From positions 15,577-79,576 of IMG/VR virus record IMGVR_UViG_3300034071_000719: 64,000 nt of DNA; one strand, 5' to 3'. Of this stretch, positions 22,145 through 47,662 are shown in pieces (the stretch's first letter is position 1; each line of letters opens with the position of its first letter). Made by a program: the position numbers and the translations under genes. The DNA is from a virus. Below the pieces are notes generated by a model. The model saw nothing but the letters and a program-made list of their open reading frames with translations. It had not been told where the DNA came from and made no database searches.

Positions 22145-22147
22145 TAG

Positions 22148-22207: not shown

Positions 22208-22223
22208 ATGGCTAATTACTATT

Positions 22224-22541
22224 ATGACAACAGAAATCAATCAACTAGTTGCCCGAATTAAGCAAGCAACAGATTATCAAACAAACAAACGCATACTTAG
22301 AGAAAAAATACAAAGTGATTTGCATTTTACACTTAGTGGTGGGCTATTCAAGGCCACTCCTGAACTAATAGCATTTCTAAACTTATATGACTTGTACGAA
22401 ATGGTTATAGAAGATACCTATCAAAATCCAATTAAAGTTAATAGAATAGCAATGTTAGAGTTAGCTAAACAGCATTATCAAATGGCTATGAACGCATGGC
22501 ATATACAACACGAAGAACTTAAACGTGCAAGAAAAGTCTAA
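22224..22541 (+). CDS. Hypothetical protein (first gene of the island)
   Basis: 105-aa ORF overlapping the next gene. Confidence 0.6.
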   Translation: MTTEINQLVARIKQATDYQTNKRILREKIQSDLHFTLSGGLFKATPELIAFLNLYDLYEMVIEDTYQNPIKVNRIAMLELAKQHYQMAMNAWHIQHEELKRARKV

Positions 22542-23286
22542 AGGTGTAATACTATTTGCAGTTAACACAGACACCGTCGATTACGTTAAAATCGCGGAGC
22601 AGGCCGCACGACTAATAAAACACACATTAAATCTACCAACTACTATTATAACAGATACTGGTGTTGAATCAATTGGTAATATTCGTACTGGTCATGCAAG
22701 TGGAACACAATGGAAAAATGGTGGTAGATATCGTGCATATGAACTTAGCCCGTATGATGAAACTATATTGCTTGATAGTGATTATTTACAGTTAGATACT
22801 AGTCTAATAGATATACTCGATACAACAGTTGATTACAAGCTAATGCATCACAATCAAAGCCCTACAATGTCAATGTCGGGCAACATGGGTCAACTAAGTT
22901 TAGATTATGTATGGGCAACTGCTATAACATTTAAACGTACCAATAAAACAAAAGCATTGTTTGAATTAGTGGGCAGAATTGAACGCAACTATGCCTACTA
23001 TCGCAAACTATATCACATTAGAGAACGCAACTTCCGCAATGATTACGCATTTGCAATTGCAAACAATATTATTAGCGGTTACACTACTGACCTTGCACAA
23101 AGTATCCCTTTTACTATGTTAACCATTGATAAACTAGTCAAAAACATTGAAATAACAGGCGAAAAGATGATTATACGTGAAGAAAATATAGCGCATGTCA
23201 TTGCCAAGCAAAACGTACACATAATGGATAAAGATTACTTATTAAGTGCAGACTTTGACAAATTGGTGGATACAATATGCGCATAA
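22525..23286 (+). CDS. Glycosyltransferase-like protein (GT-A fold, GT8-like)
   Basis: GVILFA strand, AYELSPYDETILLDSDY (DxD), RNDYAF. Confidence 0.65.
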   Translation: MQEKSKGVILFAVNTDTVDYVKIAEQAARLIKHTLNLPTTIITDTGVESIGNIRTGHASGTQWKNGGRYRAYELSPYDETILLDSDYLQLDTSLIDILDTTVDYKLMHHNQSPTMSMSGNMGQLSLDYVWATAITFKRTNKTKALFELVGRIERNYAYYRKLYHIRERNFRNDYAFAIANNIISGYTTDLAQSIPFTMLTIDKLVKNIEITGEKMIIREENIAHVIAKQNVHIMDKDYLLSADFDKLVDTICA

Positions 23287-24131
23287 CACCACATCAAGCA
23301 CAGCAAGGCTTTATGACCATTGCACAAAACACAGCAGACGTTGATTATTTACGTCTCGCTTACGTACAAGCAATGAGCATTAAACTAACAATGCCCGGTA
23401 GCTTGTATGCAGTAGCAGTTGATAAAAATACATTAGAGCAAGTAACAGAACAACATCGTAAAGTGTTTGATTATGTAATTACAATTGAAAATGACTTAGC
23501 GCAAGACGAAACTTGGAAGTTAAGTAACGAGTGGCAAGCATTTTATCTCACACCATTCAAAGAAACAATTAAACTTGAAAGCGATATTGTGTTTACAAGA
23601 AGCATTGCACACTGGTGGACTGCTTTTAGATTAAAAAATGTTGTACTAAGCACAGGCTGTAGAGATTATAAGCAAGAGTTAAGTAACTCACGTGAATATA
23701 GAAAGTTGTTTGATGATAACGAATTACCCGATACCTACAATGGACTAATGTATTTTAGGTACACAAGAGAAGCAACACAGTTCTTTACACTAGCAGAACA
23801 AATATTTAAAAACTGGGCGTATCTACGTGATAATGTATTACTTAACTGTCGCGACGATAACCCAACTACTGATGTTGTTTATGCGTTAACTGCAAAGTTA
23901 ATTGGCGTAGAAGATTGTACATTGTCGATGGACTTTATTAACTTTGTGCATATGAAACCTGCTATTAACAAGTGGACAAGTACGCCGTGGCCCGAATTAG
24001 TAATGTGCGAAACAGATTTGCCAATGGTACGTATAGCAAATACAAATCAATATCATCCGATTCACTATCACGAAAAGAGTTGGGTAACTGATGCATTAGT
24101 TAAGGAGTACGAAGATGAATTCAGAAGATGA
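23277..24131 (+). CDS. Glycosyltransferase-like protein (GT-A fold), paralog of the preceding gene
   Basis: YLRLAYVQAMSIK, FYLTPFKETIKLESDI (ExD variant), TDVVYA, FVHMK, HYH. Confidence 0.65.
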   Translation: MRITPHQAQQGFMTIAQNTADVDYLRLAYVQAMSIKLTMPGSLYAVAVDKNTLEQVTEQHRKVFDYVITIENDLAQDETWKLSNEWQAFYLTPFKETIKLESDIVFTRSIAHWWTAFRLKNVVLSTGCRDYKQELSNSREYRKLFDDNELPDTYNGLMYFRYTREATQFFTLAEQIFKNWAYLRDNVLLNCRDDNPTTDVVYALTAKLIGVEDCTLSMDFINFVHMKPAINKWTSTPWPELVMCETDLPMVRIANTNQYHPIHYHEKSWVTDALVKEYEDEFRR

Positions 24132-24465
24132 ATTAGCTAAAGCATTTGCAATGATACAACCTATCATAGAAGAAGTTAAAGAATACAGAATACACTATGA
24201 AGAAGATGGGCACATTACAATGTGTACAATGATAAATCACCCAGATGATACAACATATATCGTTGTTAGCAAAGATGAATACGACAACTACTTCCGCTAT
24301 ACAATTGTAGATGGTAAGCTGAAAAAGATTGACAACAACCCCGGTATTCGTGTACAATTAGTAAGTAGCTCCGAGGGTTATGCTGTAGTAAAGAAACATG
24401 CTGGATTAATATTAGAACCAACCGATACTTACAATGAGATTGAATACTATGACACAAATCGTTGA
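24115..24465 (+). CDS. Hypothetical protein
   Basis: 116-aa acidic ORF overlapping both neighbours. Confidence 0.55.
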   Translation: MNSEDELAKAFAMIQPIIEEVKEYRIHYEEDGHITMCTMINHPDDTTYIVVSKDEYDNYFRYTIVDGKLKKIDNNPGIRVQLVSSSEGYAVVKKHAGLILEPTDTYNEIEYYDTNR

Positions 24466-25345
24466 TATTGCAGATTTAGACTGCATCTACCTAAGTTATG
24501 ATGAGCCAAAAAAAGAAGAGTTTTGGATTAAGATTCAAAATATGGTTCCGTGGGCTAAACGTGTAGATAGTGTTAAAGGCAGTGATGCCGCACATAAAGC
24601 AGCCGCATCTGCAAGTGATACTGAACGCTTTGTATTAATCGATGGCGACAACTTACCCGACCCAGAGTTCTTTAACTTACAACTTACATTAGATGATACT
24701 AATAAAGATGTAGTCTTTCGTTGGAAGGCACGTAACATCATTAATGGCTTACAGTACGGTAACGGTGGTATGAGTTGCTGGACTAAAGAATTCATCAATA
24801 ATATGCGCACACACGAAGCAAGCAACGGTGATGATGATACTGCCGTTGAGTTTTGCTTTGACCCACGCTATTGGGCAATGAATGATTGCTACAGCACAAC
24901 ATACCCAAATCAAAGTCCATATCAAGCGTGGAGAGCTGGCTTTAGAGAAGGCGTTAAGATGTGTTTAGATCGCGGCACTAAGCCAAATCTATTAGATTTT
25001 GAGAAGCGTGTACATGATCGGAACTACGATCATTTAAGCATATGGCATAATGTAGGCATGGACGTAGAGAATGGTGACTGGGCAATGTACGGTGCTAAAC
25101 TTGGCACATATATGACTATGATTACAGATTGGGATTATAGAGAAGTACAAGACTTTGATGCATTGGATAAAATTTGGCATCAAAACAAAGTACTAAACTT
25201 AGTAGAAGAATGCAATGAAATGTCACATACATTAAATGTAAAATTAGGATTACCCGCACCACATTTAACAGCAGACCAAAGTAAATTCTTTAAATATCAT
25301 TACAAGAGTATGTTTAAGAATAAAGGAGTAATGTATCGTGAATGA
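24449..25345 (+). CDS. Glycosyltransferase (GT2-like, GT-A fold)
   Basis: IYLSYDEP, AHKAAA, FVLIDGDN (DxD), YGNGG, AWRAGFREGVKM; alternative start at 24434. Confidence 0.7.
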   Translation: MTQIVDIADLDCIYLSYDEPKKEEFWIKIQNMVPWAKRVDSVKGSDAAHKAAASASDTERFVLIDGDNLPDPEFFNLQLTLDDTNKDVVFRWKARNIINGLQYGNGGMSCWTKEFINNMRTHEASNGDDDTAVEFCFDPRYWAMNDCYSTTYPNQSPYQAWRAGFREGVKMCLDRGTKPNLLDFEKRVHDRNYDHLSIWHNVGMDVENGDWAMYGAKLGTYMTMITDWDYREVQDFDALDKIWHQNKVLNLVEECNEMSHTLNVKLGLPAPHLTADQSKFFKYHYKSMFKNKGVMYRE

Positions 25346-25961
25346 TTTAACTATTTCGCCGTGGCATGTTCTAAATATAGATATTAGTAATGCTATACGA
25401 GAAGATTTTGATTTTAATAATTTAATCAATGAATCAACTATCCGTGATTTATGGCCATATAATCGAGAAACAATAAGTGAGCTATTCTCTGCTGAATGGT
25501 TAGCTTATATGAATGAGATTGGATTACCACCGGATTCTGCTACTATCTTTTATAGATCTCCATTCTTTGAAGAATCAATGGCGCACGTTGATTTATTCCA
25601 AAATCCAATTCGTCCAGCAGTATTTGCATTAAATTGGGTAGTAAGTGAAGGGGACGACAGCGAAATGATTTGGTTCGATACTCCTGACACCCCAGGTGAA
25701 TATATTATGTACGATGCAACTGAAGTTGGATCTCGTAATATGTCTTGGCCGATGTCATCGTTTGATGGTAAACACATGTACCGTAGAACATTAGGTAAAC
25801 AGTTAACTTTAGTAGCAACAGGTAGGCCACATAATATTATTGTTAATAAGATTCCTCGTTGGTGCATAAGTGTACGTTTTTCTACTAGAACATTTAATAT
25901 TCAGTCATGGGAAGAAGCAATTGCGCACTTTAGCAAATTTATAGTTAAGGCACCAGAATAA
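25338..25961 (+). CDS. Putative 2OG-Fe(II) oxygenase/cupin-fold protein
   Basis: H-x-D (AHVD) ... H (RPHNI) ... R-x-x-x-S (RWCISVRF) pattern. Confidence 0.5.
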   Translation: MNDLTISPWHVLNIDISNAIREDFDFNNLINESTIRDLWPYNRETISELFSAEWLAYMNEIGLPPDSATIFYRSPFFEESMAHVDLFQNPIRPAVFALNWVVSEGDDSEMIWFDTPDTPGEYIMYDATEVGSRNMSWPMSSFDGKHMYRRTLGKQLTLVATGRPHNIIVNKIPRWCISVRFSTRTFNIQSWEEAIAHFSKFIVKAPE

Positions 25962-26630
25962 ATGTTAATAACTTACGGAAGTAATAAACCGTTATGTCTG
26001 ATTGGTGTTCCAAAATCAGTAATGACACAAGAAGGATTATTTTATCTTGAGAACGGATATAATGATCCAGATCACACAGCAGGACCAATTACAGTAATCA
26101 CTCCAGAAGAATTTTTGGCATTAAATGATAAAACTGTATATCAATATTGTGTAGTGTTTACACTTGATACAGTTGCTAGAACAAATATAATTAATATTTT
26201 AGAAGAGCAACAACTAGATTGCTTTAGTTATGTACATCATACATCGGTGATACGCAACGATATTGCAATAACTGAAGTTATTGGACACGGTAGTTTTCTG
26301 TGCTCATTTAATACAGTTATGATGGGCGCAACCATCGGAAAACATTGCATATTAGAAACATATTGCCTTATATCACATTATAGTACATTAGCGGATAATG
26401 TTATTATACATTCGGGCACATTGATTGCTGGTAAAACTAAAATCGGTAGCGGGTGTATATTTAATTTTAAAGCAGCCTCACTTAATGCATTAACAATATG
26501 TGATGGTGTTGAAGTGGGTGCATTAAGTACAGTCACTAAAGACATAGCTGTATCGGGACGATACATGGGTTCGATTGCACGATATGTGGGACCTCTAATT
26601 ATATTTCAAGACCCGGGAACAACAGGATAG
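25962..26630 (+). CDS. Sugar O/N-acetyltransferase (NeuD/PglD-like, left-handed beta-helix)
   Basis: Hexapeptide repeats IGHGSF/IGKHCI/IGSGCI, ISH catalytic His, VTKDI...G..AR. Confidence 0.8.
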   Translation: MLITYGSNKPLCLIGVPKSVMTQEGLFYLENGYNDPDHTAGPITVITPEEFLALNDKTVYQYCVVFTLDTVARTNIINILEEQQLDCFSYVHHTSVIRNDIAITEVIGHGSFLCSFNTVMMGATIGKHCILETYCLISHYSTLADNVIIHSGTLIAGKTKIGSGCIFNFKAASLNALTICDGVEVGALSTVTKDIAVSGRYMGSIARYVGPLIIFQDPGTTG

Positions 26631-26632
26631 TT

Positions 26633-27325
26633 ATGTATAAATCATGGCCATTGGCCCCAACATATGAATGGCGACGCCGAGAATTAGATCAATTAACTGC
26701 ACAAGGTTATGTGTGGAATTCTCCATCAGATGTAATTGATCTATTTGAAAAGAAAGTAGCTACTTTTGCGGGCAGTAAATATGCAGTAGCAATTGATTGT
26801 TGTTCACATGGTATATTTCTTGCATTAAAATATCTCAAAGCATTTGGCCCAATAGATGTCCCAGCACGTACATATATATCAGTACCGGCGCAAGTTATCC
26901 ATGCTGGGTGCAGTGTTAATTTTACACAAGAAGAATGGACTGGTGTATATCAATTAACTCCGTATCCTATTTTTGATGGAGCAGTGCGTTGGCAAAAGGA
27001 TATGTACAAGGGTGGGTTCCATATACTATCATTTCAGATTAAAAAGCGTATACCAATCGGCAAAGGCGGCATGATTCTAACTGATGATATAGATGCATAC
27101 AATTGGCTTAAACGAGCTAGTCATGATGGTAGAACATTTGGCGTTAATTTTGATCAAGATACAGTTGAAATGATAGGCTGGCACTATAATATGACTCCCG
27201 AAGATGCTGCAAGAGGTATTATGCTAATGGACCAAACAGCTGATTTCAATGAAGATTCGGGCAATTATAAATCGTACACCGATTTGTCACTATTGTCAAT
27301 TTTTACAAAAACAACGGAGAAGTAA
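26633..27325 (+). CDS. DegT/DnrJ/EryC1/StrS PLP aminotransferase, short form
   Basis: FEKKVATFAGSKYAVAIDCCS, DGA, LSFQIKK (PLP Lys), GKGGMILTDD; only 230 aa. Confidence 0.75.
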   Translation: MYKSWPLAPTYEWRRRELDQLTAQGYVWNSPSDVIDLFEKKVATFAGSKYAVAIDCCSHGIFLALKYLKAFGPIDVPARTYISVPAQVIHAGCSVNFTQEEWTGVYQLTPYPIFDGAVRWQKDMYKGGFHILSFQIKKRIPIGKGGMILTDDIDAYNWLKRASHDGRTFGVNFDQDTVEMIGWHYNMTPEDAARGIMLMDQTADFNEDSGNYKSYTDLSLLSIFTKTTEK

Positions 27326-28359
27326 TGAAAGTAGATATGCAAAAACATTGGGGCAGTAAAGAACTTTATTACGTGCCCGAGTTGATTTCTAAAATAATTC
27401 ATAGTATGCAAACAGATGGAACGGTATATCTATTCACTAATGAAGGAAAAAATGGTGCCAACAATGGTTTGTATAAATTATTAGATGACTTGTGCTTGTA
27501 CTGGAAATGGGACAAGTCGGCTATTACAATAGAAACATCAAACTTTATGCCTACTTCATGGTTAACAACAGAATTATTGCCAAACTATGGTAGTAGCCAC
27601 CCTGACTATAATATAAAACGCACTTCGCTTAATATGATGGCGGCATATATGGATATTACTAGTAAAATATATTCATGGAATAAAGAAAAATATTACGGAA
27701 TGTTTATTGCTCGTGCATCATCCGACAGGATTTACGCTGCACATGCTCATACAAAATTTAAATTTAAGGAAATGGGGCTAACAAGTTTTAGAGAAAATTT
27801 ATTCGAATATATGAGTTATCCTGATCTAGTAGATTACTTTATGCATTCAAATCAGACATACAAAGAAATGCTAGAAGTTGTGCCACACAGTGATATAGAA
27901 GAGTTAATCCCGTCTCCGAATTCGCCATTAATTACTCCGCCGTATAATACCAGTGATTGGGGTAAGGTATACGAAAAAATAGCCATTGATATTGTATGCG
28001 AAACTAGTACTGAACCAAATTGTGGTGATGTGTCAGAGAAAGTATATCGCCCATTGTATTATAAACGACCGTTTTTATTAATTGGCTCACCGGGGCAATT
28101 TGCTATTCTGCATGAGTTAGGATTTAAAACATTTGATGGGATAATCGACGAATCCTACGATAAATTAACCGGAGTTGCTCGTGTCAATAAAGTATTTGAA
28201 ATATTAGAACAATTAATTTTAGACAACAGAATGGATACGCTGTTAGATGAATGTAAAGAAATACTTGAACATAACCATAAACAAATGATTCGATTATCTA
28301 TTGAACATAGAGTAAAGCATAGAGACGAGCTAAAAAAATTGATGGATAACGATGAGTAG
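27325..28359 (+). CDS. Putative glycosyltransferase (GT10/fucosyltransferase-like C-terminal domain)
   Basis: DIVCET...SEKVYRPLYYKRPFLLIG...LGFKTF...DESYD. Confidence 0.5.
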   Translation: MKVDMQKHWGSKELYYVPELISKIIHSMQTDGTVYLFTNEGKNGANNGLYKLLDDLCLYWKWDKSAITIETSNFMPTSWLTTELLPNYGSSHPDYNIKRTSLNMMAAYMDITSKIYSWNKEKYYGMFIARASSDRIYAAHAHTKFKFKEMGLTSFRENLFEYMSYPDLVDYFMHSNQTYKEMLEVVPHSDIEELIPSPNSPLITPPYNTSDWGKVYEKIAIDIVCETSTEPNCGDVSEKVYRPLYYKRPFLLIGSPGQFAILHELGFKTFDGIIDESYDKLTGVARVNKVFEILEQLILDNRMDTLLDECKEILEHNHKQMIRLSIEHRVKHRDELKKLMDNDE

Positions 28360-29737
28360 TAATTTTATGTCGGCTGCAGAGGAAATGAAGGACAAGTTAG
28401 GTCCTGCACTCTGCTTGGCTAAATGGCAACAAGTAAGTCTACATTTGCCAACTGGACTAACAAACAGTTGCTATCATCCGCCCTTACACGAAATTGATAG
28501 TGCGCCACTACTATTTAATCCGGGTGCGCTACACAATACTGACTACAAGAAACAGCAACGTAAACTTATGCTAGAGCAAACACGCCCGGCAGAATGTAGT
28601 TATTGTTGGAGTGCAGAAGATAACAACCAACTAAGCGACAGACACTATCGCTCCGGTGAACCATGGGCGGCTGAACACTATGAAGAAATAGTAAACGCAC
28701 CATGGGACCAAGACGTTGTACCGAGTTATGTTGAAGTAAACTTCAGTCATGGCTGTAACTTAGCATGTTCATATTGCTCCCCACAATACTCAACAGAGTG
28801 GGGTAAGGATACAGACAGATGGGGTGCGTATCCAACAAGCGTACCACACAATGCGCCTGAACACTTTCAAGGTCGCCGCAAGCCAATCCCAGTACGCGAA
28901 GCTAATCCGTATGTTGAAGCATTTTGGCGTTGGTGGCCCGAGCTGTATCCTAAGCTAAAACACTTTAGAATGACTGGTGGTGAACCGCTTATGGATAAGA
29001 ATACGCACCGTGTATTTGATTACATACTTGCACTACCAAAAAGTGATTTACACGTTGATGTAACTAGTAACTTCAGTGTTGAGCCACAAGTATTTGAAAA
29101 GTATTTAGACAAAGTTAAACAACTATGCACGGGCGAACGTATAGAACACTTTATGCAGTATGTTAGTCTAGATACTGGACTTCCTGCACATGCAGAATAT
29201 ATACGCGATGGGCTATATTGGGATAGAGTCATGCGATATTCTAACGCTTTCCTAACAGAAGTGCCATACCGCAATAGCCTAACGTTTATTATCACAATGA
29301 ACAATTTAAACATACTTGGACTAAAACTTTTATTGACTCAGATATTAGAGATGCGTAACAAATACAGCACAACTTATCAACGTGTGTGGTTCGATACGCC
29401 ACTATTACGTAGCCCAACCTATCAAAGTTTACAAATACTCCCAGCAAGTTATGTTCGCATATTAGAAGATGTTGTTACGTTTATGCGAACAAATCAAGCA
29501 GACGAAACAGCTGATAACTTCGAAGGCTTTAAAGATTATGAAATACAACGTATGGAACGTAATGTTGAATGGATGAAACAAGGTTGCGAACTCTCGAAGG
29601 AATATGTTACAATACAAAGAGCAGACTTCTATAGATTTTTTAATGAATATGATAAACGCAGAGGTTTAAACTTTTTGGAAACATTCCCACAGATGACAGA
29701 ATTTTGGCAGGAGTGCAAATACCATGCCGAAACGTAA
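28352..29737 (+). CDS. Radical SAM protein with N-terminal Twitch domain (1 of 7)
   Basis: CLAKW...SCYHP...CSYC, then CNLACSYC and TGGEP. Confidence 0.9.
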   Translation: MSSNFMSAAEEMKDKLGPALCLAKWQQVSLHLPTGLTNSCYHPPLHEIDSAPLLFNPGALHNTDYKKQQRKLMLEQTRPAECSYCWSAEDNNQLSDRHYRSGEPWAAEHYEEIVNAPWDQDVVPSYVEVNFSHGCNLACSYCSPQYSTEWGKDTDRWGAYPTSVPHNAPEHFQGRRKPIPVREANPYVEAFWRWWPELYPKLKHFRMTGGEPLMDKNTHRVFDYILALPKSDLHVDVTSNFSVEPQVFEKYLDKVKQLCTGERIEHFMQYVSLDTGLPAHAEYIRDGLYWDRVMRYSNAFLTEVPYRNSLTFIITMNNLNILGLKLLLTQILEMRNKYSTTYQRVWFDTPLLRSPTYQSLQILPASYVRILEDVVTFMRTNQADETADNFEGFKDYEIQRMERNVEWMKQGCELSKEYVTIQRADFYRFFNEYDKRRGLNFLETFPQMTEFWQECKYHAET

Positions 29738-38888: not shown

Positions 38889-38964
38889 TCGTGTTAAATT
38901 AGAAATACGTTATCGTAAGAAACTTAAAGAATTGCGTAAGCGCGATCCATTTATCTATAAATGA
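38863..38964 (+). CDS. 33-aa basic protein MNWLLNIINRVKLEIRYRKKLKELRKRDPFIYK (absent from the ORF track)
   Basis: Fills the gap exactly; its stop overlaps the next ATG (ATGA). Confidence 0.65.
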   Translation: MNWLLNIINRVKLEIRYRKKLKELRKRDPFIYK

Positions 38965-39506
38965 TTTTAGTAAACGGCGATAGTTTTACTGCTGGTGAAG
39001 AAAGTGATATTGCCTGGCCGGAGTTAATTGCTGATACTGTAAATATTGCTGTACCTGGTGCTAGCAATGATTATATACTTAGATCAACAGTTGATTATGT
39101 AGATAATAATAAAGTTGATTATGTAATAATAGCGTGGACTAGCCCCAATCGAATTGAATTACCAAACAAACACCTAACATCTGCTAGTTATAAGAAGTAT
39201 GGACCAGTGGTTAATAGTGTATTTGCTGAATGGGATACAGAGTGGGCATATAAGAAATTTATTGCGCAAACTAAATTATTAGATTGTTACTTAACAATGC
39301 CGCATTTGTTTGTAAGTACATTTGACATACAAACAGTGGCACAAGGTAGTGGGTTAGATTGTTGGCTAGGCTGGCCACACGAAGGATTAGTAGAGTGGAT
39401 GGGCAACTGTCTAAAAGGTTCTGGTGGACACCCACTGGAATTAGGACATCAACGAATAGCGGAAAAAATCAATGAACATATTAGGCATCTCGGCTGGGTT
39501 TCATGA
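38961..39506 (+). CDS. SGNH/GDSL-like hydrolase or acyltransferase
   Basis: GDSFT, AVPGASND, WTSPNR, GHPLELGH. Confidence 0.7.
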   Translation: MILVNGDSFTAGEESDIAWPELIADTVNIAVPGASNDYILRSTVDYVDNNKVDYVIIAWTSPNRIELPNKHLTSASYKKYGPVVNSVFAEWDTEWAYKKFIAQTKLLDCYLTMPHLFVSTFDIQTVAQGSGLDCWLGWPHEGLVEWMGNCLKGSGGHPLELGHQRIAEKINEHIRHLGWVS

Positions 39507-40962
39507 CGCAGCAATTACATTAATCAAAGGCGATGATATTGTCTTTGCAGGTCACGCTGAACGTTATAGCAAAATTAAACACGACCCAAACTTAAACGTT
39601 GAAATGCTCAGAGATTGTATATTCAATTATGGCGAACCTGATTTAATTGCATATTATGAAAGACCGTGGGTTAAAAAGACACGACAACTTTATGCTGGAC
39701 AATACAGTGAACTAACTAAAGGATGGAGTGTACGCAACATGATACACAAAGTCGCTCCGTGGTTAAGTTCTACTCCAATCAAAACATACAATCATCACCT
39801 ATCACATGCGGCCGCTGGCTTTCAAACTAGCCCGTTTGATGATGCAACAGTTGTTGTAATTGATGCAATTGGCGAGTGGGATACTATTAGCATATGGTCT
39901 GCAAAATATGTCAATGGTAAGGCACAATATACAAGAGTGTGGCGCCAATTATACCCACACAGCATCGGCTTAATGTACAGTGCATTTACTAAAGAAGTTG
40001 GCCTACGTCCGCTAGATGAAGAATACATTTTAATGGGCATGGCGGGCTGGGCAAAACAAGACACAACACGTTTAAGTGACCAACTTTCAAATTGGTTAGT
40101 TGACCACGAGTTTGAGCTAACATTAAAACATAACTTACATATCGGTCTACCCGACAATGATATAAAAGCAAAATGGAATGACTTTGAGATTGCTAATGCG
40201 GCTCAGACATTAACAGAACAATTGATACACAATATAATGTATAAAGCAAAAACACTAGCACCTAGTAGTAACTTGGTATACTCGGGCGGTGTTGCGCTTA
40301 ACTGTAGTGCTAATAGAGATTTAGGAGAATATTTTGATAACATTTGGATTATGCCCAATCCTGGCGATGCTGGTAGTAGCCTCGGTGCTGCAGCGTTGGC
40401 GCACGGTAGCAAACTTAACTGGGTGGATGCTTTTCTCGGGCATAACATTACTGGCCCTTATCCCTGTACTGATATTGTATCTGCATTAATGACAAACAAG
40501 ATTGTTGGCGTTGCCAATGGTCGTGCAGAATTTGGACCAAGAGCGTTGGGCAACAGAAGTTTACTAGCTGACCCACGCGGCCCTGATATTAAAGATGCTG
40601 TAAACTTAATTAAACGTCGTCAACAGTTTAGACCATTTGCTCCTATAATACTAGAGGAGTTTGTTGATGAGTATTTTGAAATGCCCAATGGATTTAAAAC
40701 AAGTCCGTACATGCAAACGACTGCAAAGTGCTTGCGTCCTAACGAATTTCCTGCTATAATACATATAGATGGTACAAGTAGAGTACAGACTGTTCCACGT
40801 GATAACAGTGGTATACGTGAACTATTGTGTTTATGGTATACATGGACAGGTTGTCCGATGTTGCTTAATACAAGTTTAAATGTACGCGGTGAACCAATGG
40901 TAAATGATCGTGCCGATGCAGATCGCTTTGAAGAACTGTATGGAGTAAAGGTACTAAGTTGA
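39472..40962 (+). CDS. Carbamoyltransferase, NodU/CmcH (TobZ) family
   Basis: HDAA, ERYSKIKHD, HHLSHA, DAIGE, SGGVALNC, GRAEFGPRALGNRS, FRPFAP, HIDGTSRVQTV, LLNTSLN. Confidence 0.93.
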   Translation: MNILGISAGFHDAAITLIKGDDIVFAGHAERYSKIKHDPNLNVEMLRDCIFNYGEPDLIAYYERPWVKKTRQLYAGQYSELTKGWSVRNMIHKVAPWLSSTPIKTYNHHLSHAAAGFQTSPFDDATVVVIDAIGEWDTISIWSAKYVNGKAQYTRVWRQLYPHSIGLMYSAFTKEVGLRPLDEEYILMGMAGWAKQDTTRLSDQLSNWLVDHEFELTLKHNLHIGLPDNDIKAKWNDFEIANAAQTLTEQLIHNIMYKAKTLAPSSNLVYSGGVALNCSANRDLGEYFDNIWIMPNPGDAGSSLGAAALAHGSKLNWVDAFLGHNITGPYPCTDIVSALMTNKIVGVANGRAEFGPRALGNRSLLADPRGPDIKDAVNLIKRRQQFRPFAPIILEEFVDEYFEMPNGFKTSPYMQTTAKCLRPNEFPAIIHIDGTSRVQTVPRDNSGIRELLCLWYTWTGCPMLLNTSLNVRGEPMVNDRADADRFEELYGVKVLS

Positions 40963-41375
40963 AAATATTAATTATGGGATTGCCTGGGTCAGGTAAAACG
41001 ACCCTCGCTAGCGCACTATTAAAATTAATAGATTGTGTATGGTATAATGCCGATGCAGTTAGAAAAAATTACAATGATTGGGATTTTTCTGAAGAAGGCA
41101 GACTACGTCAAGCAACACGTATGAAAACGTTAGCTGATGATAGCAAAGGTCATGTTATATGCGACTTTGTTGCGCCTACTAAAGAGATACGTGATATATT
41201 TGATGCCGACTATGTTATATGGGTCGACACAATTAAAAAAGGTAGATTTAAAGATACAAATAAAGTATTCGAACCACCAACACAATACGACATGCGAGTA
41301 ATAGAACAAGATGCTGAACGTTGGGCAACTATTATTGCACATGCCATTTCTATAAAGGAATTAAATGAAAGATAA
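40959..41375 (+). CDS. Adenylylsulfate (APS) kinase-like P-loop kinase
   Basis: GLPGSGKTT, NADAVR...DFSEEGR, FEPP; TTG start. Confidence 0.7.
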   Translation: MKILIMGLPGSGKTTLASALLKLIDCVWYNADAVRKNYNDWDFSEEGRLRQATRMKTLADDSKGHVICDFVAPTKEIRDIFDADYVIWVDTIKKGRFKDTNKVFEPPTQYDMRVIEQDAERWATIIAHAISIKELNER

Positions 41376-41865
41376 AATGAAATTAGCACACATGCGCACT
41401 GCATTTAATTATGCGGCATGTTCGAGTGCTGTACGCTTACAAGTTGGGTCAATCATTGTTAAAGATGATGCAATTATCTCTATAGGATACAACGGTCAGC
41501 CAAGTGGTTGGGATAACGTGTGTGAAGAACGAGAATACATGGCAAGTGATGCTGGTGGTTGGCTTGACCCAGATGAAATAGAATCACAGTGGCCATTTGT
41601 TGCCGAAGATCAACTTAGATACAGATTGAAAACAAAATCAACTGTACTCCACGCAGAGTCAAATGCTATCTCAAAACTTGCTAAACTAAATGGTGGAGCA
41701 CAAGGTTCAGCAATCTTTATTACACATTGCCCTTGCTTAGATTGTGCAAAAACAATTTATCAAGCTGGTATTACAGAAGTGTATTATGCACAATCATACC
41801 GCGATACAATAGGCGCTGACTTTTTAATTAAATGTGGATTAACAGTAGAACAAGTACATGTTTGA
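41365..41865 (+). CDS. dCMP deaminase
   Basis: QVGSIIV, IGYNG, HAESNAI, PCLDC Zn motifs. Confidence 0.88.
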   Translation: MKDKMKLAHMRTAFNYAACSSAVRLQVGSIIVKDDAIISIGYNGQPSGWDNVCEEREYMASDAGGWLDPDEIESQWPFVAEDQLRYRLKTKSTVLHAESNAISKLAKLNGGAQGSAIFITHCPCLDCAKTIYQAGITEVYYAQSYRDTIGADFLIKCGLTVEQVHV

Positions 41866-44476
41866 TGTGTTTTATAAAGGCGCAAAGCCTAACCTATTTC
41901 CTTTTGAACTGCCCGCCGATACATTAGAAGAAGCCGCAAGTTTAAGTCGTACTAAGTTCTTTTGGTTCATCGATGGGCAGAATGATTACAATGGATTTGA
42001 TTTTAATTTCCGTGCAGTACCATGGGAAGAGCATCAAATACACACTTGGCCAAACCAATGGCAAGTAGATGGCGGCACATACTTTGCTAACAAGTATACT
42101 ATCCAAGATAAAACACATAACTTTCATACAGAAACATATACACATCGTTTGCCTAATTTAGATTTCTGGCACATACCCGCTAATATAGATTCTAAAAGTA
42201 TTAATACAAGATGGGCACCTGACCCGTTAGATCCGCCTTACATATATCAGTTTCCTGTTAAGTGGGGATGGGATAAAATTGGTGGCCCAGAGTATCGTGT
42301 ACCTGGTGCAACCGAAATTAAGTTTGTAGATGATTTCTCTGCTCGTACACTTAGCGATATGTCATTGTGGAATGTACCTGCTAACATTGATAAAGAATCA
42401 TTTGATTTTAGTTGGGCACCTCACCCGGCAGAAGAGCCATACATATATAAATTTCCAACAGTATGGAATGCAGTTGGCGGACCAGAATATCGTGTACCCG
42501 GTGCTACAAAAGAAAAGTATATTGATGTTGTAGTAGCACGTACATTGCCAGATCGTACACTGTGGACTATACCAGAAGAAGTTAATGCAGATACTGTAGA
42601 CTTTGGCTGGGTTCCTCATCCGCAAGACCCTCCTTACATATATCACTTTGGCACAGAATTTCAATCAAGCATTGGCTTAACATATACAATGCCGGACGCA
42701 ACCGAAGTTAAATTTGCTGGACCTATTCCGGAATTAGGACAGCACGATAATCCAGTATTACAAGTGTTAGACATATTCTTTATTGATAAGAGTAATGCCA
42801 GTTCTACTGCACGTTACGAAAAGTTAATTGAACAGTATCCACATGCACAAAAGATACGTTATGTTAATTCGATGATTGATACAATTAAACGTTGTATCGT
42901 ACGTACAAAGACAAGTAAGTTTTGGGTTATTAGTAGTGAAAATATCTACGATGACTTTAACTTTGCGTGGCATGCGCAACCGTGGCAAAGTTATATGACA
43001 CATGTATTTGGTTCACAACATCAGAAGTGGAGTGACACATACTTAATTAATAAATGGGAATTTGAACGTACAACTACTTGGGCAAACAGCTTAGAGGAAT
43101 TTCCAAACCTTAACTTCGTACAAGATCAAAGTATTGTAATTCCAGATAACTTACATGATATTTACTTTGTAGATCACGGTAACGAAAATGATCAACTTGA
43201 ACAATTACAAAAGAAACATACCGACATTAAAATAACACGCTATGTTGACAACTATCTCGATACCTTTAAACGTATTATGTCAACTGCAACAACAGAACAT
43301 GTGTGGATAATTAGTAGCCTATGTGATTACACACGCTTTGACTTTAGTTGGCAACCCGAGCCGTGGCAGAAAGAAATGATACATGTGTTTCCAAGTAACA
43401 ATCAGGAACGCGGTGACACATTCTATATACATGTAGAAAGTTTTAAACTGCAAATGGTTGAGCTTGCATTATTAGATTGGTTTAATGTTATTAACTACTG
43501 TAAAGAACAACGTGTACCACGTCTACCTATTCCTGTAGTTGAATACAGTGGCGACAACTTAATTGAAGTAATTAAGTCGCATGAATTTAACCATCCGTTT
43601 ACATGGTTTTATAACTACAAGCTGGGTGTAGTGTATAACCCGAGCATTTGGTATGCAAAAGACCGTCAAATCGTTGGTTTTTCAGCCGGAAATAGCTATG
43701 TTTTGGTGCCTAGAGACGCCAAATCTGTTATCAATACACAGGCATACGATTATCCGTATATTACTAAAATGCCTATGTTTAATGAACATGCACTAGATAT
43801 TATCTATATTAGTAACGGTGAACCCGAAGCCGAAAAATGGTACAAACATTTAATTAGTACAGTAGATCAAACACGTAGATCAGTTAGACGTGTACAAAAT
43901 GTTAATGGGCGAGCCAACGCATACAAAGCGGCCGCTGAATTAAGTGAAACTCCATGGTTCTTTGCTGTGTTTGCTAAGTTAGAAGTTGTTGAAGACTTTG
44001 ATTGGGAGTGGCAACCCGACTACTTGCAAGGTCCTAAGCACTACATATTCCATGCCAAAAATCCAGTCAACGGATTAGAGTATGGACACATGGGTGTAAT
44101 TGCGTATAACAAGCGTTTAGTGCTTGAAACAAACGATAGTGGACTTGACTTTACACTAAGCAAAGCACACGCTGTAGTACCTGTATTAAGTGCTATAGCG
44201 CATTATAACACTACACCAGAGCTAACATGGCGTACTGCATTTAGAGAGTGTATTAAACTACGTGATGATGTACGTAAAGTTGCCGGAGTTGAGAGTGATT
44301 ACAGACTTGATGAGTGGTTACATAAAGCAGAAGGTGCTAATGCAGAATGGAGCATTAAGGGCGCAGAAGATGCAATTATGTACTACGATGAAGTCGATGG
44401 TGATATGGATAAACTAATGCTGACGTTTGAATGGGATTGGCTAAAACAGTATTACGCTACCAAGTACACTCTTTAA
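41858..44476 (+). CDS. Large multi-module glycosyltransferase-like protein with W-x-P-[DH]-P repeats
   Basis: Several degenerate GT-A-like modules; C-terminal domain paralogous to 24449-25345; three WxP[DH]PxxxPYIYxF repeats. Confidence 0.65.
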   Translation: MFDVFYKGAKPNLFPFELPADTLEEAASLSRTKFFWFIDGQNDYNGFDFNFRAVPWEEHQIHTWPNQWQVDGGTYFANKYTIQDKTHNFHTETYTHRLPNLDFWHIPANIDSKSINTRWAPDPLDPPYIYQFPVKWGWDKIGGPEYRVPGATEIKFVDDFSARTLSDMSLWNVPANIDKESFDFSWAPHPAEEPYIYKFPTVWNAVGGPEYRVPGATKEKYIDVVVARTLPDRTLWTIPEEVNADTVDFGWVPHPQDPPYIYHFGTEFQSSIGLTYTMPDATEVKFAGPIPELGQHDNPVLQVLDIFFIDKSNASSTARYEKLIEQYPHAQKIRYVNSMIDTIKRCIVRTKTSKFWVISSENIYDDFNFAWHAQPWQSYMTHVFGSQHQKWSDTYLINKWEFERTTTWANSLEEFPNLNFVQDQSIVIPDNLHDIYFVDHGNENDQLEQLQKKHTDIKITRYVDNYLDTFKRIMSTATTEHVWIISSLCDYTRFDFSWQPEPWQKEMIHVFPSNNQERGDTFYIHVESFKLQMVELALLDWFNVINYCKEQRVPRLPIPVVEYSGDNLIEVIKSHEFNHPFTWFYNYKLGVVYNPSIWYAKDRQIVGFSAGNSYVLVPRDAKSVINTQAYDYPYITKMPMFNEHALDIIYISNGEPEAEKWYKHLISTVDQTRRSVRRVQNVNGRANAYKAAAELSETPWFFAVFAKLEVVEDFDWEWQPDYLQGPKHYIFHAKNPVNGLEYGHMGVIAYNKRLVLETNDSGLDFTLSKAHAVVPVLSAIAHYNTTPELTWRTAFRECIKLRDDVRKVAGVESDYRLDEWLHKAEGANAEWSIKGAEDAIMYYDEVDGDMDKLMLTFEWDWLKQYYATKYTL

Positions 44477-45548
44477 TAGCATCAACAACTGCTTCAACTT
44501 CTGCATCAGTCATCTCAGGATAGATTGGTAAACTCAAACACGTTTTACTAAACTGTTCTGCTCCAACTAATACTTCGTGTCCGCCAATTACGCCCATCAT
44601 GTGCAATGGTGCAGTATAATGTATCTTAGTTTCTATGCCCATTGCATGTAAATCTGAGAATAAGCGTGAACGTTCTGGATAGTGTATAACAAACTTATGC
44701 CAAGCATGTTCGACATTATGATGTATAGGAATCATCTGCACTGGCCCATCTAATTCTTCTGTGTAGTATTCTGCAATGTTCTTACGACGCTGTTGCCACG
44801 CATCAAAATGCCGTAACTTAACTAACATCTGAGCACAATCAACCTCACTCATTTTGCTGTTAGTACCAACAGTGTAATGTTCCGATACCTTACCGTTATC
44901 ACGCATATTAAGACATAGTTCAGCAAACTCGGCATCATCAGTTAGTATCATTCCACCACTGCCATAGTTAGGAAAATTCTTAGTCGGGTCAAAACTTAAA
45001 CAACTAATGTCGCCTAACTTGCCACTCGGAACGCCACGATAATAAGCACCAAACGATTGTGCCGCATCTTCGATTACAGGTATGCGATGACTATTAAAGA
45101 ACGTAACATACGTTTGTAACTTATCGTAGTCAATAATATTACCAAACAAGTTAACGTACATAACAGCCGCAATTTCATCTGGCTCTACCGGTATACTATC
45201 GAGATTAATTAACCCTGTTATAGGGTCAACATCACAAAACACAGGCTCAAATCCAGCTTCGAATACAACATTAACTGTAGCGGCAAAACTTTGACTAGGG
45301 ATTAGCACTTTATTTTTATGGAATAAAGAATAGAAGTCAATAGCTCGTAAAGCAAAGACAAGTGCCTGGGTACAACTATTAACAGCGACAGCATACTTAC
45401 GTTCTGTTAAGTTAGCAATAGTCTGTTCAAACGTTTTAGTGTATTGCCCATCTAATACTTGCCCACCGGAATACACCACGTCGGTTACATCAAGTATCTC
45501 CTCACGGATTGTTTTATATTGTCGATCTACACCAAAGAATGGAATCAT
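44457..45548 (-). CDS. DegT/DnrJ/EryC1/StrS sugar aminotransferase (full length)
   Basis: VAVNSCT, IEDAAQSFGA, SFDPTKN, GSGGMILTDD, LSLPIYP. Confidence 0.9.
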   Translation of the reverse strand: MIPFFGVDRQYKTIREEILDVTDVVYSGGQVLDGQYTKTFEQTIANLTERKYAVAVNSCTQALVFALRAIDFYSLFHKNKVLIPSQSFAATVNVVFEAGFEPVFCDVDPITGLINLDSIPVEPDEIAAVMYVNLFGNIIDYDKLQTYVTFFNSHRIPVIEDAAQSFGAYYRGVPSGKLGDISCLSFDPTKNFPNYGSGGMILTDDAEFAELCLNMRDNGKVSEHYTVGTNSKMSEVDCAQMLVKLRHFDAWQQRRKNIAEYYTEELDGPVQMIPIHHNVEHAWHKFVIHYPERSRLFSDLHAMGIETKIHYTAPLHMMGVIGGHEVLVGAEQFSKTCLSLPIYPEMTDAEVEAVVDAIKECTW

Positions 45549-46531
45549 AGCGGAAGTTGGTCACGCCAGTAAGGAGAGAATTTAAACCACTCATGATAAC
45601 GAGCAAATCCTTCTTCTACGTTAACTGTTGGATTGTACCCAAAGTCCGCAACTGCACTAGTAATGCTTAATCTACCACGTGTTGGAAATGCTAAATCACG
45701 TTCTGCAACTTCGATACTACCTTTACCTGCAATGCTTACAGCAAGTTTAGCGGCATCAAGCAATGTATATTCTGCTTCTGATGAACGTGTAATATTGTAA
45801 ATTCTATTGTTGGCATTATCGCTTAATGCGGCTTGAGCAATGCCCATTGCAGTATCTTCAACGTATGTAAAGTCTAGCACCTCATTGGCACCTTTAACTT
45901 TTAATACTTCACCACGCATTGCCGCAAGCATAAACTTACTAACAACTCTATCTTCGATATCCCACGGACCGTATACAGCACTTGGGCGAATGATAGTATG
46001 CGCAAAGCAGCCACGGCGAGTATAATCAGCTACAAGTTTCTCGCCCATATACTTCATAATGCCGTATTGCCCAATTGGATTACAATCAACATACTCGTCG
46101 ACACCATCGAACAAGCCATCTTTAAAGTCACCATATATCATTGAACTGCTAATGTACACAAACTTCTTAATGTTATAACGTGCGCTTGCTTCAAGTAAAT
46201 TGATTAGGCCCGTGGTCATTACTTCTGACCCAAGTATTGGATTTTGGCTTACTACATTTTGTCGTGGAAAGCTAGCGAGATGTATTACTAACTCTGGACG
46301 TACTGCGCTAAAAATACTGTCGATATGATTAACGCTACATATATCAGTATGTATGACACGTGAGTTAAAACGTTCTTTACGTGAAGATTTAAGATAATTC
46401 AATTCCTTTTTTGGTATAAAGCCATAGTCTGTTGTAGTGTCAACGACGATGCACTCATGCCCTTGCTGTTCTAATATGCGAGTTACATTATGTCCGATAA
46501 ACCCTGCACCGCCTGTGATTATTATTTTCAT
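45545..46531 (-). CDS. NAD-dependent nucleotide-sugar epimerase/dehydratase (extended SDR)
   Basis: TGGAGFIG, SSSMIYG, YGIMK (YxxxK), DFTYVED. Confidence 0.9.
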   Translation of the reverse strand: MKIIITGGAGFIGHNVTRILEQQGHECIVVDTTTDYGFIPKKELNYLKSSRKERFNSRVIHTDICSVNHIDSIFSAVRPELVIHLASFPRQNVVSQNPILGSEVMTTGLINLLEASARYNIKKFVYISSSMIYGDFKDGLFDGVDEYVDCNPIGQYGIMKYMGEKLVADYTRRGCFAHTIIRPSAVYGPWDIEDRVVSKFMLAAMRGEVLKVKGANEVLDFTYVEDTAMGIAQAALSDNANNRIYNITRSSEAEYTLLDAAKLAVSIAGKGSIEVAERDLAFPTRGRLSITSAVADFGYNPTVNVEEGFARYHEWFKFSPYWRDQLPL

Positions 46532-47656: not shown

Positions 47657-47662
47657 AATACT

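Follow-up and report, generated by a model that had tools for sequence, protein, structure and literature searches.

Capsid and tail glycosylation is known from mycobacteriophages. In butirosin biosynthesis, a twitch radical SAM dehydrogenase (BtrN, whose twitch domain is C-terminal) works with a DegT-family aminotransferase (BtrS). O-carbamoyltransferases of the NodU/NolO/TobZ/SxtI type have small partners of the SxtJ/SxtK type, and the tailoring of saxitoxin or tobramycin combines a carbamoyltransferase and its small partner with a GDSL protein and an APS-kinase-like kinase. SPASM/twitch radical SAM enzymes are typical peptide maturases.

Virus-encoded virion glycosylation has been described for chlorovirus PBCV-1 (A64R) and for the fibril glycans of mimivirus (reviewed in PMC9614988). 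In T4-like pelagimyophages and cyanomyophages, a variable block of the structural region known as the host recognition cluster adjoins the genes for a giant virion protein and for the tail fibres. Alongside glycosyltransferases (GT8) and sugar-nucleotide genes it carries 'radical SAM cassettes', and the authors who described it prefer the host O-chain as the target of modification (Zaragoza-Solas et al. 2020, PMC7029224). An earlier note on the DNA studied here had stated that no characterised phage pathway of such a composition was known. This holds in part, as cassettes of glycosyltransferases and radical SAM enzymes are in print, at the level of annotation only (PMC7029224).

The window, i.e. 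the whole stretch of DNA analysed, covers 64 kb of an IMG/VR viral contig 79.6 kb long. CheckV puts the contig at 23% completeness, so the full genome would measure about 340 kb. The contig comes from an uncultured T4-like jumbo phage of fresh (lake) water. Its island probably encodes a sugar-oriented assembly and tailoring line, with a probability of roughly three in four.

Operon structure and predicted timing

The island consists of 24 overlapping genes on the plus strand (22,224-44,476) behind baseplate, giant-virion-protein and fibre genes. PHROG matches identify the latter as a baseplate wedge subunit (14-2,122), a virion structural protein of 4,255 aa (2,143-14,910) and tail-fibre proteins (14,955-21,193). 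The tight packing behind the fibres reported before was confirmed: from g1 (start 22,224) to g23 (end 44,476) every junction overlaps or is at most 2 nt wide. The last two genes (44,457-46,531) had been counted as coupled to the operon, but both lie on the minus strand and are thus uncoupled. The locus is read as a single operon under a sigma70-type promoter of its own (22,148-44,476, plus strand), followed by two convergent sugar-nucleotide genes.

A sigma70-like promoter, TTGACA-17-TAAACT (22,148-22,176, plus strand), lies between the last fibre gene and g1. Directly 3' of it is a terminator-like hairpin of 10 bp with a T-run (22,177-22,203, plus strand), and the segment 22,148-22,203 is read as having a double role, as putative terminator for the fibre operon and as promoter of the island. 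In 12 of the 18 distinct relatives a promoter matching at least 10 of 12 positions lies 21-57 nt ahead of g1, as compared with 0-4 of about 19 at control junctions; the conserved form is TTGACA-17-TAnAAT. Promoters of this class also stand before thyA and four non-structural genes. In front of structural genes the motif is nTAAATA, at -23 to -28, and none of the island genes has it. Because the island shares its promoter class with thyA and is devoid of nTAAATA, its expression is predicted to be early rather than late. The island is therefore not a plain continuation of the fibre operon, as had been supposed, and late co-expression with the fibres is not what these signals predict. Exact matches to pieces of g12 and g13 were found in metatranscriptome libraries.

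No island protein contains a hydrophobic 19-mer above 1.6. All products thus appear soluble and the pathway is probably cytoplasmic. Peripheral glycosyltransferases of O-antigen pathways are likewise without membrane segments, so a lipid-linked acceptor is compatible with soluble products.

Gene content and conservation

The synteny test that had been proposed was positive. In 26 related viral contigs the order of the block is kept, and wherever the flank is long enough to show them, fibre genes precede it. Two phage-like contigs that belong to a RefSeq MAG entry show the same order and fibre adjacency. The core comprises g1-g5, five radical SAM orthogroups, g17, the SGNH proteins, a small peptide, the carbamoyltransferase, the kinase and g23. 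Genes for amino sugars belong to the accessory set: g6-g8 occur in only one of the 26 loci and g24/g25 in a few, so the SDR, DegT and acetyltransferase route does not anchor the pathway as proposed in the earlier note. Variable slots of the relatives hold UDP-glucose dehydrogenase, SDR, class-III aminotransferase, B12-radical SAM, GDSL proteins and an AMP-binding enzyme, as would be expected if the glycan diversifies.

Profile and structure searches matched families largely as described before, though the count of at least five glycosyltransferase-like proteins stands at differing strength. The best case is g5 (24,434-25,345), a GT-A-fold transferase with an invariant D70-G-D72 and a predicted fold at pLDDT 84 (VIA Z 9.8, rmsd 3.1, 142 residues aligned). 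With 61-71% identity it ranks with the best-conserved enzymes of the island, and its fold neighbours ThuS/SunS, PBCV-1 A64R and STIV A197 glycosylate proteins, peptides or virions. The C-terminal domain of g23 (41,858-44,476), a multi-domain protein of 872 aa with repeated F-D-F-S-W-x-P modules, is homologous to g5 (BLASTP 5e-13) without the DxD motif. The GT8 and GT10 assignments are weak. In a profile search against the PDB, the core protein g3 (23,277-24,131) matched glycogenin-1 (GT8) only weakly (E 0.006); its core paralogue g2 (22,525-23,286; hhalign 98.9%, E 2e-17) has an invariant D84-x-D86. The GT10-like (fucosyltransferase-type) assignment of g9 (27,325-28,359), member of a phage family of which each relative has one to three copies, placed in variable slots, is only a lead. 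Two small conserved proteins are g1 (22,224-22,541; 105 aa; 36-57% identity in 21 loci), which gave no family match, and g4 (24,115-24,465; 116 aa).

Seven radical SAM genes span 28,352-37,050. As stated in the earlier note they are of the Twitch type: all exceed the cut-off of NF033640 (N_Twi_rSAM; E 4e-51 to 5e-116), and each has CX3CX2C and four conserved N-terminal cysteines. They are 20-26% identical among themselves. The five core orthogroups are represented by g10 (28,352-29,737; 2.7e-84; its own clade in the tree), g12 (30,871-32,205; 1e-86; 51% identical to RsoM2USA_202 of the cultured relative RsoM2USA), g13 (32,202-33,536; 5.5e-116; more than 7,500 database relatives), g14 (33,526-34,737; 3.7e-105) and g16 (35,764-37,050; 4e-86; 63-84% identity in relatives). 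Of the two accessory members, g11 (29,724-30,884; 7e-85) has a counterpart at the same position in locus L010 (46%), the only copy with which it pairs in the tree, and weaker ones in L017/L035 (34%). The other, g15 (34,734-35,771; 4e-51), scores 174 bits against a cut-off of 170 and is an orphan among the sampled relatives. In bacteria the family occurs in tandem arrays beside GT4/GT2, UGDH, SDR, GDSL, carbamoyltransferase and sulfotransferase genes. A literature search found no assayed NF033640 member, the family being only catalogued in NCBIfam, and no solved structure detectably related by sequence was found; sugar chemistry is thus assigned by analogy.

The radical SAM row is followed by g17 (37,028-38,200; AF2 pLDDT 84), a conserved phage-only protein. 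Foldseek gave no PDB match, similarity to cyclophilin-like barrels (VIA Z about 8) is at noise level, and all BFVD matches are uncharacterised phage proteins, including one of Atu_ph07. The two SGNH/GDSL proteins g18 (38,178-38,888) and g19 (38,961-39,506) were verified by a joint profile that matches GDSL proteins in the PDB (E 2e-5). Between them lies a very conserved, previously unannotated ORF for a basic peptide of 33 aa ending in RKRDPFIYK (38,863-38,964). It is the counterpart of a small PFIY-tailed protein beside bacterial carbamoyltransferases, with a basic helix in place of the membrane helix of the bacterial form at locus L056. The NodU/CmcH-type carbamoyltransferase g20 (39,472-40,962; 46% identical to RsoM2USA_199) matches Carbam_trans_N (1.5e-38) and Carbam_trans_C (1.7e-48), and the APS-kinase-like P-loop kinase g21 (40,959-41,375) scores 28.3 bits against a Pfam cut-off of 21.1, both as claimed. 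In line within the operon follows g22 (41,365-41,865; PF00383, 3e-19), a dCMP/cytidine deaminase present in about 11 of the 26 loci; this gene and the 33-aa ORF were absent from the earlier gene list.

Among the accessory genes, the NeuD/PglD-like acetyltransferase could be located as g7 (25,962-26,630), a NeuD/PglB/VioB-like hexapeptide protein (Hexapep 3e-10; TIGR03570 7e-27, below the family cut-off). The SDR epimerase/dehydratase is g25 (45,545-46,531, minus strand; PF01370, 5e-41). Of the two DegT aminotransferases named before, g24 (44,457-45,548, minus strand; PF01041, 4e-86) is full-length, whereas g8 (26,633-27,325) is a truncated PLP protein of 230 aa with a partial match (PF01041, 1e-14; LegC family, 5e-9). 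A cupin oxygenase was supported by no tool; g6 (25,338-25,961), the likely source of that claim, gave no match in the searches and has a homologue only in locus L018.

Proposed pathway and alternatives

In the proposed pathway the GT-A (g5, g23), GT8-like (g2, g3) and GT10-like (g9) proteins would link sugars into a short chain on a soluble acceptor. The five conserved and two accessory N-twitch radical SAM enzymes would each abstract a hydrogen atom at a different sugar position; BtrN-type oxidation to a keto sugar is the precedent, with epimerisation, deoxygenation and C-C chemistry equally open. The accessory PLP aminotransferases and acetyltransferase may convert keto sugars to acetamido sugars, the SGNH proteins may move or remove O-acyl groups, and the kinase may phosphorylate or activate an intermediate. 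The NodU-type enzyme with its 33-aa partner would O-carbamoylate the product. Fibre or baseplate proteins of the phage itself would be the most likely acceptor, and the result a glycan coat that varies between lineages. Lack of membrane segments, together with a partner peptide that has no membrane helix, fits a soluble rather than a lipid-linked acceptor. No acceptor motif was found, and the S/T content of the fibre proteins (21-26%) is no evidence for attachment to the virion, since such richness is normal for fibres. The pathway as a whole, virion acceptor included, is a tentative proposal in which the virion is the leading guess.

The predicted early timing is at least as compatible with host or DNA targets as with decoration of the virion. 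The enzymes might decorate the host's lipid-linked intermediates of O-antigen, capsule or glycolipid synthesis, or supply these with altered nucleotide sugars, and so change the cell surface, e.g. to block superinfection. Apart from the sigma70 (early) promoter class, this agrees with the view taken of GT8-rich gene sets in the pelagimyophage cluster (PMC7029224). Bacterial loci with the same radical SAM, GDSL and carbamoyltransferase families are membrane-linked, and all three annotated Bacteroidota loci carry a UbiA-GT4-GDSL fusion and an ABC transporter; five other bacterial genomes, however, have no UbiA genes near the radical SAM loci. The 24-kb block itself lacks an initiating phosphoglycosyl transferase, flippase, polymerase, transporter or any membrane segment, the membrane helix of the partner peptide is lost, and the strict linkage to fibre genes stays unexplained. 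Remodelling of the envelope is regarded as unlikely. A soluble pseudo-oligosaccharide or aminoglycoside-like product, acting on the host or competitors with no macromolecule decorated, is distinctly improbable. The composition resembles a biosynthetic gene cluster, with the radical SAM and aminotransferase pairing of butirosin and the carbamoyltransferase set of saxitoxin or tobramycin tailoring; related bacterial clusters include a WelO5-type halogenase, PhyH dioxygenases and FabH, and solubility and promoter class also fit. Yet no scaffold-forming enzyme (cyclase, PKS or NRPS) is encoded, and four to five glycosyltransferase-like proteins argue for a chain on an acceptor, as does the conserved position within the structural/fibre region.

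Glycosylation of a modified base of the phage DNA, with the other enzymes tailoring that sugar, would account for the deaminase inside the operon, for thyA 2 kb away and for the early promoter class, and phage GT-A and GT-B enzymes do put diverse glycans on 5hmC or 5hC (10.1101/2023.12.21.572611, PMC13326640). It is highly improbable: ThyA is canonical (full-length match to bacterial ThyA at 3.5e-90, catalytic PPCH, uracil-specifying Asn), no hydroxymethylase, TET-like oxygenase or C5-methyltransferase is seen in the island, fewer than half of the relatives' loci have the deaminase, and the published DNA-glycan pathways have no radical SAM or carbamoyltransferase (10.1101/2023.12.21.572611, PMC13326640). 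The least credence is given to a RiPP-like role, in which the radical SAM enzymes would act on fibre proteins or on a small peptide, by cross-linking or epimerisation, and the sugar enzymes would be secondary. It has in its favour that SPASM/twitch enzymes are typical peptide maturases, and also the weaker HMM matches of g11, g14 and g15 to PapB, CcpM and others, and the small conserved ORFs (g1, g4, the 33-aa peptide). The last of these is a partner and not a precursor, because it accompanies the carbamoyltransferase, as it does in bacteria and RsoM2USA too. Three of the fibre proteins are cysteine-free and the others contain one or two cysteines, which excludes thioether chemistry on most, and the bacterial family neighbours are sugar enzymes, not peptide precursors.

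Comparison with described systems

The island shares placement, GT8-like proteins, sugar-nucleotide genes and radical SAM cassettes with the host recognition cluster, which was described in general terms at the annotation level (PMC7029224). That description neither defines the fixed core of five N-twitch radical SAM orthogroups, g5, g17, SGNH, peptide and carbamoyltransferase nor mentions the sigma70-type promoter. All seven paralogues resemble NF033640 over the full length; as compared with the catalogued family, five members here form a fixed row in a phage island. Like BtrN/BtrS, the island places a radical SAM core with a twitch-type auxiliary cluster beside DegT-type aminotransferases, by analogy a chemically sensible route from hydroxyl via ketone to amine. 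The twitch domain is N-terminal in the island and C-terminal in BtrN, no sequence relation to BtrN is detectable, and the island aminotransferases are accessory. As in the NodU/NolO/TobZ/SxtI systems, g20 has both Pfam domains, with the PFIY-tailed ORF just upstream (also at L056 and in RsoM2USA) and GDSL adjacent; the phage peptide differs by its basic helix, and no SxtJ-like membrane protein is present. The systems of PBCV-1, mimivirus and mycobacteriophages operate without radical SAM or carbamoyltransferase. In those viruses, soluble glycosyltransferases and rare-sugar pathways of their own decorate the particle, and A64R is a fold neighbour of g5.

Genomic setting and gene content

The source contig in IMG/VR is 79.6 kb long, of which the window covers 64 kb; its completeness was estimated by CheckV as 23%, which places the genome near 340 kb. 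The G+C content within the window is 33-40%. Neither the radical SAM row nor the structural region found a match when compared by megablast with 50,697 phage records. The genes upstream of the island were assigned by PHROG matches. They encode a baseplate wedge subunit (14-2122), a virion structural protein in a single ORF of 4255 aa (2143-14910) and several tail-fibre proteins (14955-21193), one of which has a weak Pfam match to an intramolecular-chaperone domain. In cyano- and pelagimyophages the host recognition cluster is bounded by a giant protein, VrlC, to which the 4255-aa ORF probably corresponds. This ORF also gave weak matches to CBM_5_12 and FG-GAP.

Behind the fibre genes, 23 long plus-strand ORFs (g1 to g23) and one ORF of 33 codons occupy positions 22224-44476, with each junction overlapping or at most 2 nt apart. 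A full-length DegT protein (g24) and an SDR protein (g25) are located on the minus strand and converge on this operon. The gene list of the earlier note, made from the sequence alone, held for seven radical SAM proteins, a NodU-type carbamoyltransferase, two SGNH proteins, a NeuD-like hexapeptide acetyltransferase, an APS-kinase-like P-loop kinase and the SDR protein. One of its two DegT proteins is the full-length g24; the other (g8) is truncated and DegT-like. The cupin oxygenase on the list found no support in Pfam, PHROG and PDB searches of g6, and a dCMP deaminase (41365-41865, Pfam) had been omitted. Pfam and PHROG gave no match for g1-g6, g9, g17, g18 and g23, and searches of the PDB by sequence or profile gave no useful match for g2, g5, g6, g9, g13 and g17.

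The same note had counted at least five glycosyltransferase-like proteins, a number that is plausible but firm for g5 alone. The AlphaFold2 model of the g5 family (pLDDT 84) has a GT-A fold at residues 9-168. Foldseek matched it at probabilities of 0.94-1.0 to GT2-type enzymes, the ThuS/SunS S-glycosyltransferases, RmlT, TarS and PBCV-1 A64R being among the Foldseek matches, and VIA-align to B4GALNT1 gave a Z of 9.8 (rmsd 3.1, 142 aligned residues), with STIV A197 and WrtF close behind. The DxD motif (D70-G-D72) is invariant in the family. On the basis of this model g5 is predicted to be a GT-A glycosyltransferase; its transferase activity is given as a prediction because Z reaches 8.5-8.9 for nucleotidyltransferases that share this fold. 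The further candidates are weaker. The C-terminal domain of g23 (872 aa) is homologous to g5 (5e-13) and is without the DxD motif. Homology between g2 and g3 was found with hhalign (98.9%), and neither protein matches Pfam; a weak profile match of g3 to glycogenin (E 0.006) is the sole GT8 match of the pair, none being found for g2 with its profile against the PDB. The protein g9 belongs to a multi-copy phage family. Among named clusters in the Atlas, those of GT10 come nearest to it, with scores of 0.78-0.79 that fall short of the trustworthy level; g9 matched neither Pfam (including PF00852) nor a solved structure in the PDB.

The radical SAM row and its partner genes

The seven radical SAM genes g10 to g16 (28352-37050) are consecutive, and all seven products pass the curated cut-off of the N_Twi_rSAM family NF033640 (170 bits) over their full length, with 174-388 bits, a result that was repeated on the genome. 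The SPASM match in Pfam lies N-terminal to the Radical_SAM match. The CX3CX2C motif (C157/C161/C164 in g13 numbering) is invariant in the seven paralogues, and so, N-terminal to it, are the auxiliary-cluster cysteines C43/C62/C103/C106 (7/7, same numbering). Pairwise identity among the paralogues is 20-26%. In a tree from a quick maximum-likelihood search, the phage sequences form five orthogroups (SH-aLRT 97-100), the sister of each being a copy from one contig of a Bacteriovoracaceae MAG, and the g13 type branches from within the bacterial copies. Far from the island, a long plus-strand ORF (59042-61051) gives the window its eighth radical SAM match (PF04055, 53 bits), which does not belong to the N-twitch family.

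The SGNH proteins g18 and g19 were compared in a family of 23 sequences, and the residues expected in block I (GDS), block II (Gly), block III (Asn) and block V (His) were looked for. G7, S9, G13, H211 and H217 do not vary and N54 hardly does, but conservation does not extend to the Asp of the usual DxxH. Their profile matches GDSL proteins in the PDB at E 2e-5. The carbamoyltransferase (g20) scores 133.6 bits for Carbam_trans_N and 164.9 bits for Carbam_trans_C (cut-offs 24 and 27). For g17 the structural model is confident but shows no convincing known fold; its structural relatives are uncharacterised phage proteins, one of them from Agrobacterium phage Atu_ph07, and no match was found in the ESM Atlas. 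A cyclophilin-like fold for g17 was dropped, as its Z of about 8 is the stated noise level of the tool.

The best-conserved feature of the island is the 33-aa ORF (38863-38964). It is present with 67-88% identity in 26 of 28 phage-type loci, namely 24 of the 26 viral relatives and two phage contigs filed under a bacterial MAG (L045 and L047). Its tail, RKRDPFIYK, is nearly fixed, and the SGNH/carbamoyltransferase pair always follows it directly. Next to the carbamoyltransferase gene of a Crocinitomicaceae chromosome there is an ORF of 49 aa that shares the N-terminal pattern and ends in an APFIYSLF tail; it is probably a small protein of the SxtK/DUF5989 type. The bacterial ORF has a hydrophobic helix in its middle, whereas the phage peptide is without a membrane helix. 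In the phage loci, the bacterial locus and the cultured Ralstonia phage RsoM2USA alike, the peptide tracks the carbamoyltransferase and not the radical SAM row.

In many relatives the g21 kinase is longer (263-278 aa), as in L014 (19985-20776) and its equivalents in L017, L021, L027, L031 and L034. The extra C-terminal part, with the tail SATKIRKS, has a weak likeness to cytidylyltransferase-type nucleotidyltransferases (E about 0.1); a kinase-nucleotidyltransferase fusion, if true, would point to sugar-phosphate activation.

Related loci in phages and bacteria

A scan of IMG/VR with g13 found 26 loci of 53-83% identity. The earlier note had called for a comparison of the island's position across related phages, and when all window proteins were mapped onto the 26 loci one conserved order behind the fibre genes emerged: g1-g5, a variable slot, g10, (g11), g12, g13, g14, a second variable slot, g16, g17, SGNH, the 33-aa ORF, SGNH, carbamoyltransferase, kinase, (deaminase) and g23. 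Among these loci, g6-g8 were seen in a single one and g24/g25 in a few. Counterparts of g11 exist in three (46% identity in L010, 34% in L017 and L035) and of g15 in none. The variable slots of the relatives contain UDP-glucose dehydrogenase, SDR, class-III aminotransferase, B12-binding and other radical SAM proteins, GDSL proteins and an AMP-binding enzyme. The phage cassette is complete in both L045 (183 kb) and L047 (148 kb), contigs filed under the RefSeq MAG 'Haliscomenobacter sp. EUL_031', and L045 contains homologues of the fibre genes as well; both appear to be jumbo-phage DNA that was binned with a bacterium. The same appearance is shared by many contigs of an 'Elusimicrobia' MAG (MJ-2014_bin-0981).

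RsoM2USA contains a mini-module at 123-130 kb with the order SGNH-like, g12-type N-twitch radical SAM (51%), SGNH-like, an ORF with the PFIYK tail, RsoM2USA_200 and carbamoyltransferase (46%). The PFIYK ORF has 36 codons and is unannotated, and the genes of the module are annotated merely as hypothetical proteins. A homologue of g5 (41%) lies 90 kb away from it. This module of a cultured phage is a tractable entry point.

Bacterial genomes were scanned with an alignment of g13 orthologues. N-twitch radical SAMs of 26-42% identity were found in Bacteroidota, Bdellovibrionota, Acidobacteriota and Pseudomonadota, and many of them stand in tandem, three to eight in a row. The neighbourhoods of three loci and one gene were annotated with Pfam. 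The three Bacteroidota loci contain GDSL proteins, carbamoyltransferase, UDP-glucose dehydrogenase, SDR and sulfotransferase, together with PhyH dioxygenases, a WelO5-type halogenase, methyltransferase, FabH, an ABC transporter and UbiA-family prenyltransferases, one of these fused to GT4 and GDSL domains. In a Bdellovibrionales locus a GT2 and a g5/g23-like protein adjoin the radical SAM. These neighbourhoods indicate that radical SAM, GDSL, carbamoyltransferase and sugar enzymes were associated before the phage cassette arose. The idea that UbiA is generally a neighbour was dropped after a check of five further genomes, in which matches were far from the locus in L085 and L095 (contigs matched), none was found in L094, and contig identity was not checkable for L049 and L050; the claim on UbiA is therefore limited to the three Bacteroidota loci. 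L050, a Bacteriovoracaceae MAG contig of 83.9 kb that may be bacterial or viral, carries eight tandem N-twitch radical SAMs, among which each of the five phage orthogroups has a sister; the 10 kb around the array contain neither GT-A nor g17 nor carbamoyltransferase.

Promoter class and possible targets

Between the last fibre gene and g1 the plus strand carries a sigma70-like promoter, TTGACA-17-TAAACT, at 22148-22176 and, at 22177-22203, a hairpin of 10 bp that has a T-run. A promoter of at least 10/12, often with a TGn extension, was found 21-57 nt upstream of g1 and overlapping the hairpin in 12 of 18 distinct relatives, compared with 0-4 of about 19 control junctions. Elsewhere in the window, at 54391-58660 on the minus strand and at 47657-47700, perfect TTGACA-17-TATAAT boxes (12/12) stand ahead of three small-gene units, and 11/12 boxes ahead of thyA and one more gene; in total, such boxes, perfect or nearly so, are found for thyA and four non-structural genes of the minus strand. 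Ahead of the structural genes (2143, 19571 and 21206) the motif nTAAATA is found at -23 to -28. Neither g1 nor any other island gene has this motif, which a T4-type late unit would carry, and TAAATA is found 12 times in the island (26 expected). The sequence TATAAATA does not occur anywhere in the window. T4-like phages are the basis for reading such promoter classes as early or late, and by this analogy the island is predicted to be an early unit driven by host sigma70. The two promoter classes are cleanly separated and could serve to time every gene of this phage clade. Contigs from four metatranscriptome runs match g12, g13 and the fibre genes exactly, and one of 206 nt spans 22089-22294; these contigs are short and of low depth, DNA carry-over is possible, uncovered parts carry no meaning, and the contigs give no reading of timing.

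A sugar pathway in general is well supported, with a probability of roughly three in four, by the protein families, the sugar enzymes in the variable slots and the bacterial neighbourhoods. Its target is more tentative. Glycosylation of the virion is the leading candidate, somewhat short of an even chance, given the fixed position behind the fibre genes, the soluble machinery and the precedents for virus-encoded virion glycosylation (PMC9614988); the promoter class weakens it. Early expression would fit a remodelling of the host surface, the reading favoured in the host-recognition-cluster paper (PMC7029224), but the island has no export or lipid-carrier gene, and this reading is considered unlikely. 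In the Pfam search of the island no initiating phosphoglycosyl transferase, flippase, polymerase or transporter of a Wzx/Wzy- or ABC-dependent polysaccharide locus was found, and the 25 island proteins contain no 19-residue window with a Kyte-Doolittle mean of at least 1.6.

The resemblance of the island to a biosynthetic gene cluster speaks for a soluble natural product, which is given a small probability. The more specific proposal that the operon is an early phage cluster for a soluble, carbamoylated, radically tailored pseudo-oligosaccharide, similar to an aminoglycoside and directed against host defences or competing phages, is speculative and slightly less probable again; in that case the five N-twitch radical SAMs would carry out sugar chemistry that is not yet described. 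Modification of the phage DNA is very improbable, as the nearby ThyA is canonical and the only TS homologue there, and known DNA-glycan pathways are without these tailoring enzymes; neither a hydroxymethylase nor a methyltransferase with a TET-like oxygenase, as in DNA-glycan or thymidine hypermodification, was found in the island with Pfam. The radical SAMs could instead act on a peptide, but the 33-aa peptide, the one precursor candidate examined, follows the carbamoyltransferase and the fibres are cysteine-poor, so that this reading is given the slightest chance. Thioether cross-linking of the fibres was also considered and dropped, since three fibre proteins have no Cys.

The cassette is common: g13 has more than 7500 relatives in the database, and at least 17 metagenome studies of lake water and freshwater contain near-identical DNA. 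It provides a set of five fixed orthogroups from a radical SAM family whose auxiliary-cluster domain is permuted and N-terminal, and it bears on a question of phage ecology, namely which role sugar genes play in the variable region beside the fibres of large T4-like phages. Literature searches with the NF033640 family name and for jumbo phages with radical SAM and carbamoyltransferase returned no study of the cassette. Where bacteria combine radical SAM, GDSL, carbamoyltransferase and sugar enzymes, the combination is tied to the membrane; the phage proteins are all soluble, and the partner peptide has lost its helix. Existing descriptions cover sugar and radical SAM genes in the variable region beside the fibres of T4-like phages, but not the fixed core of five radical SAMs with its partner genes, nor the membrane-free peptide and the promoter class.
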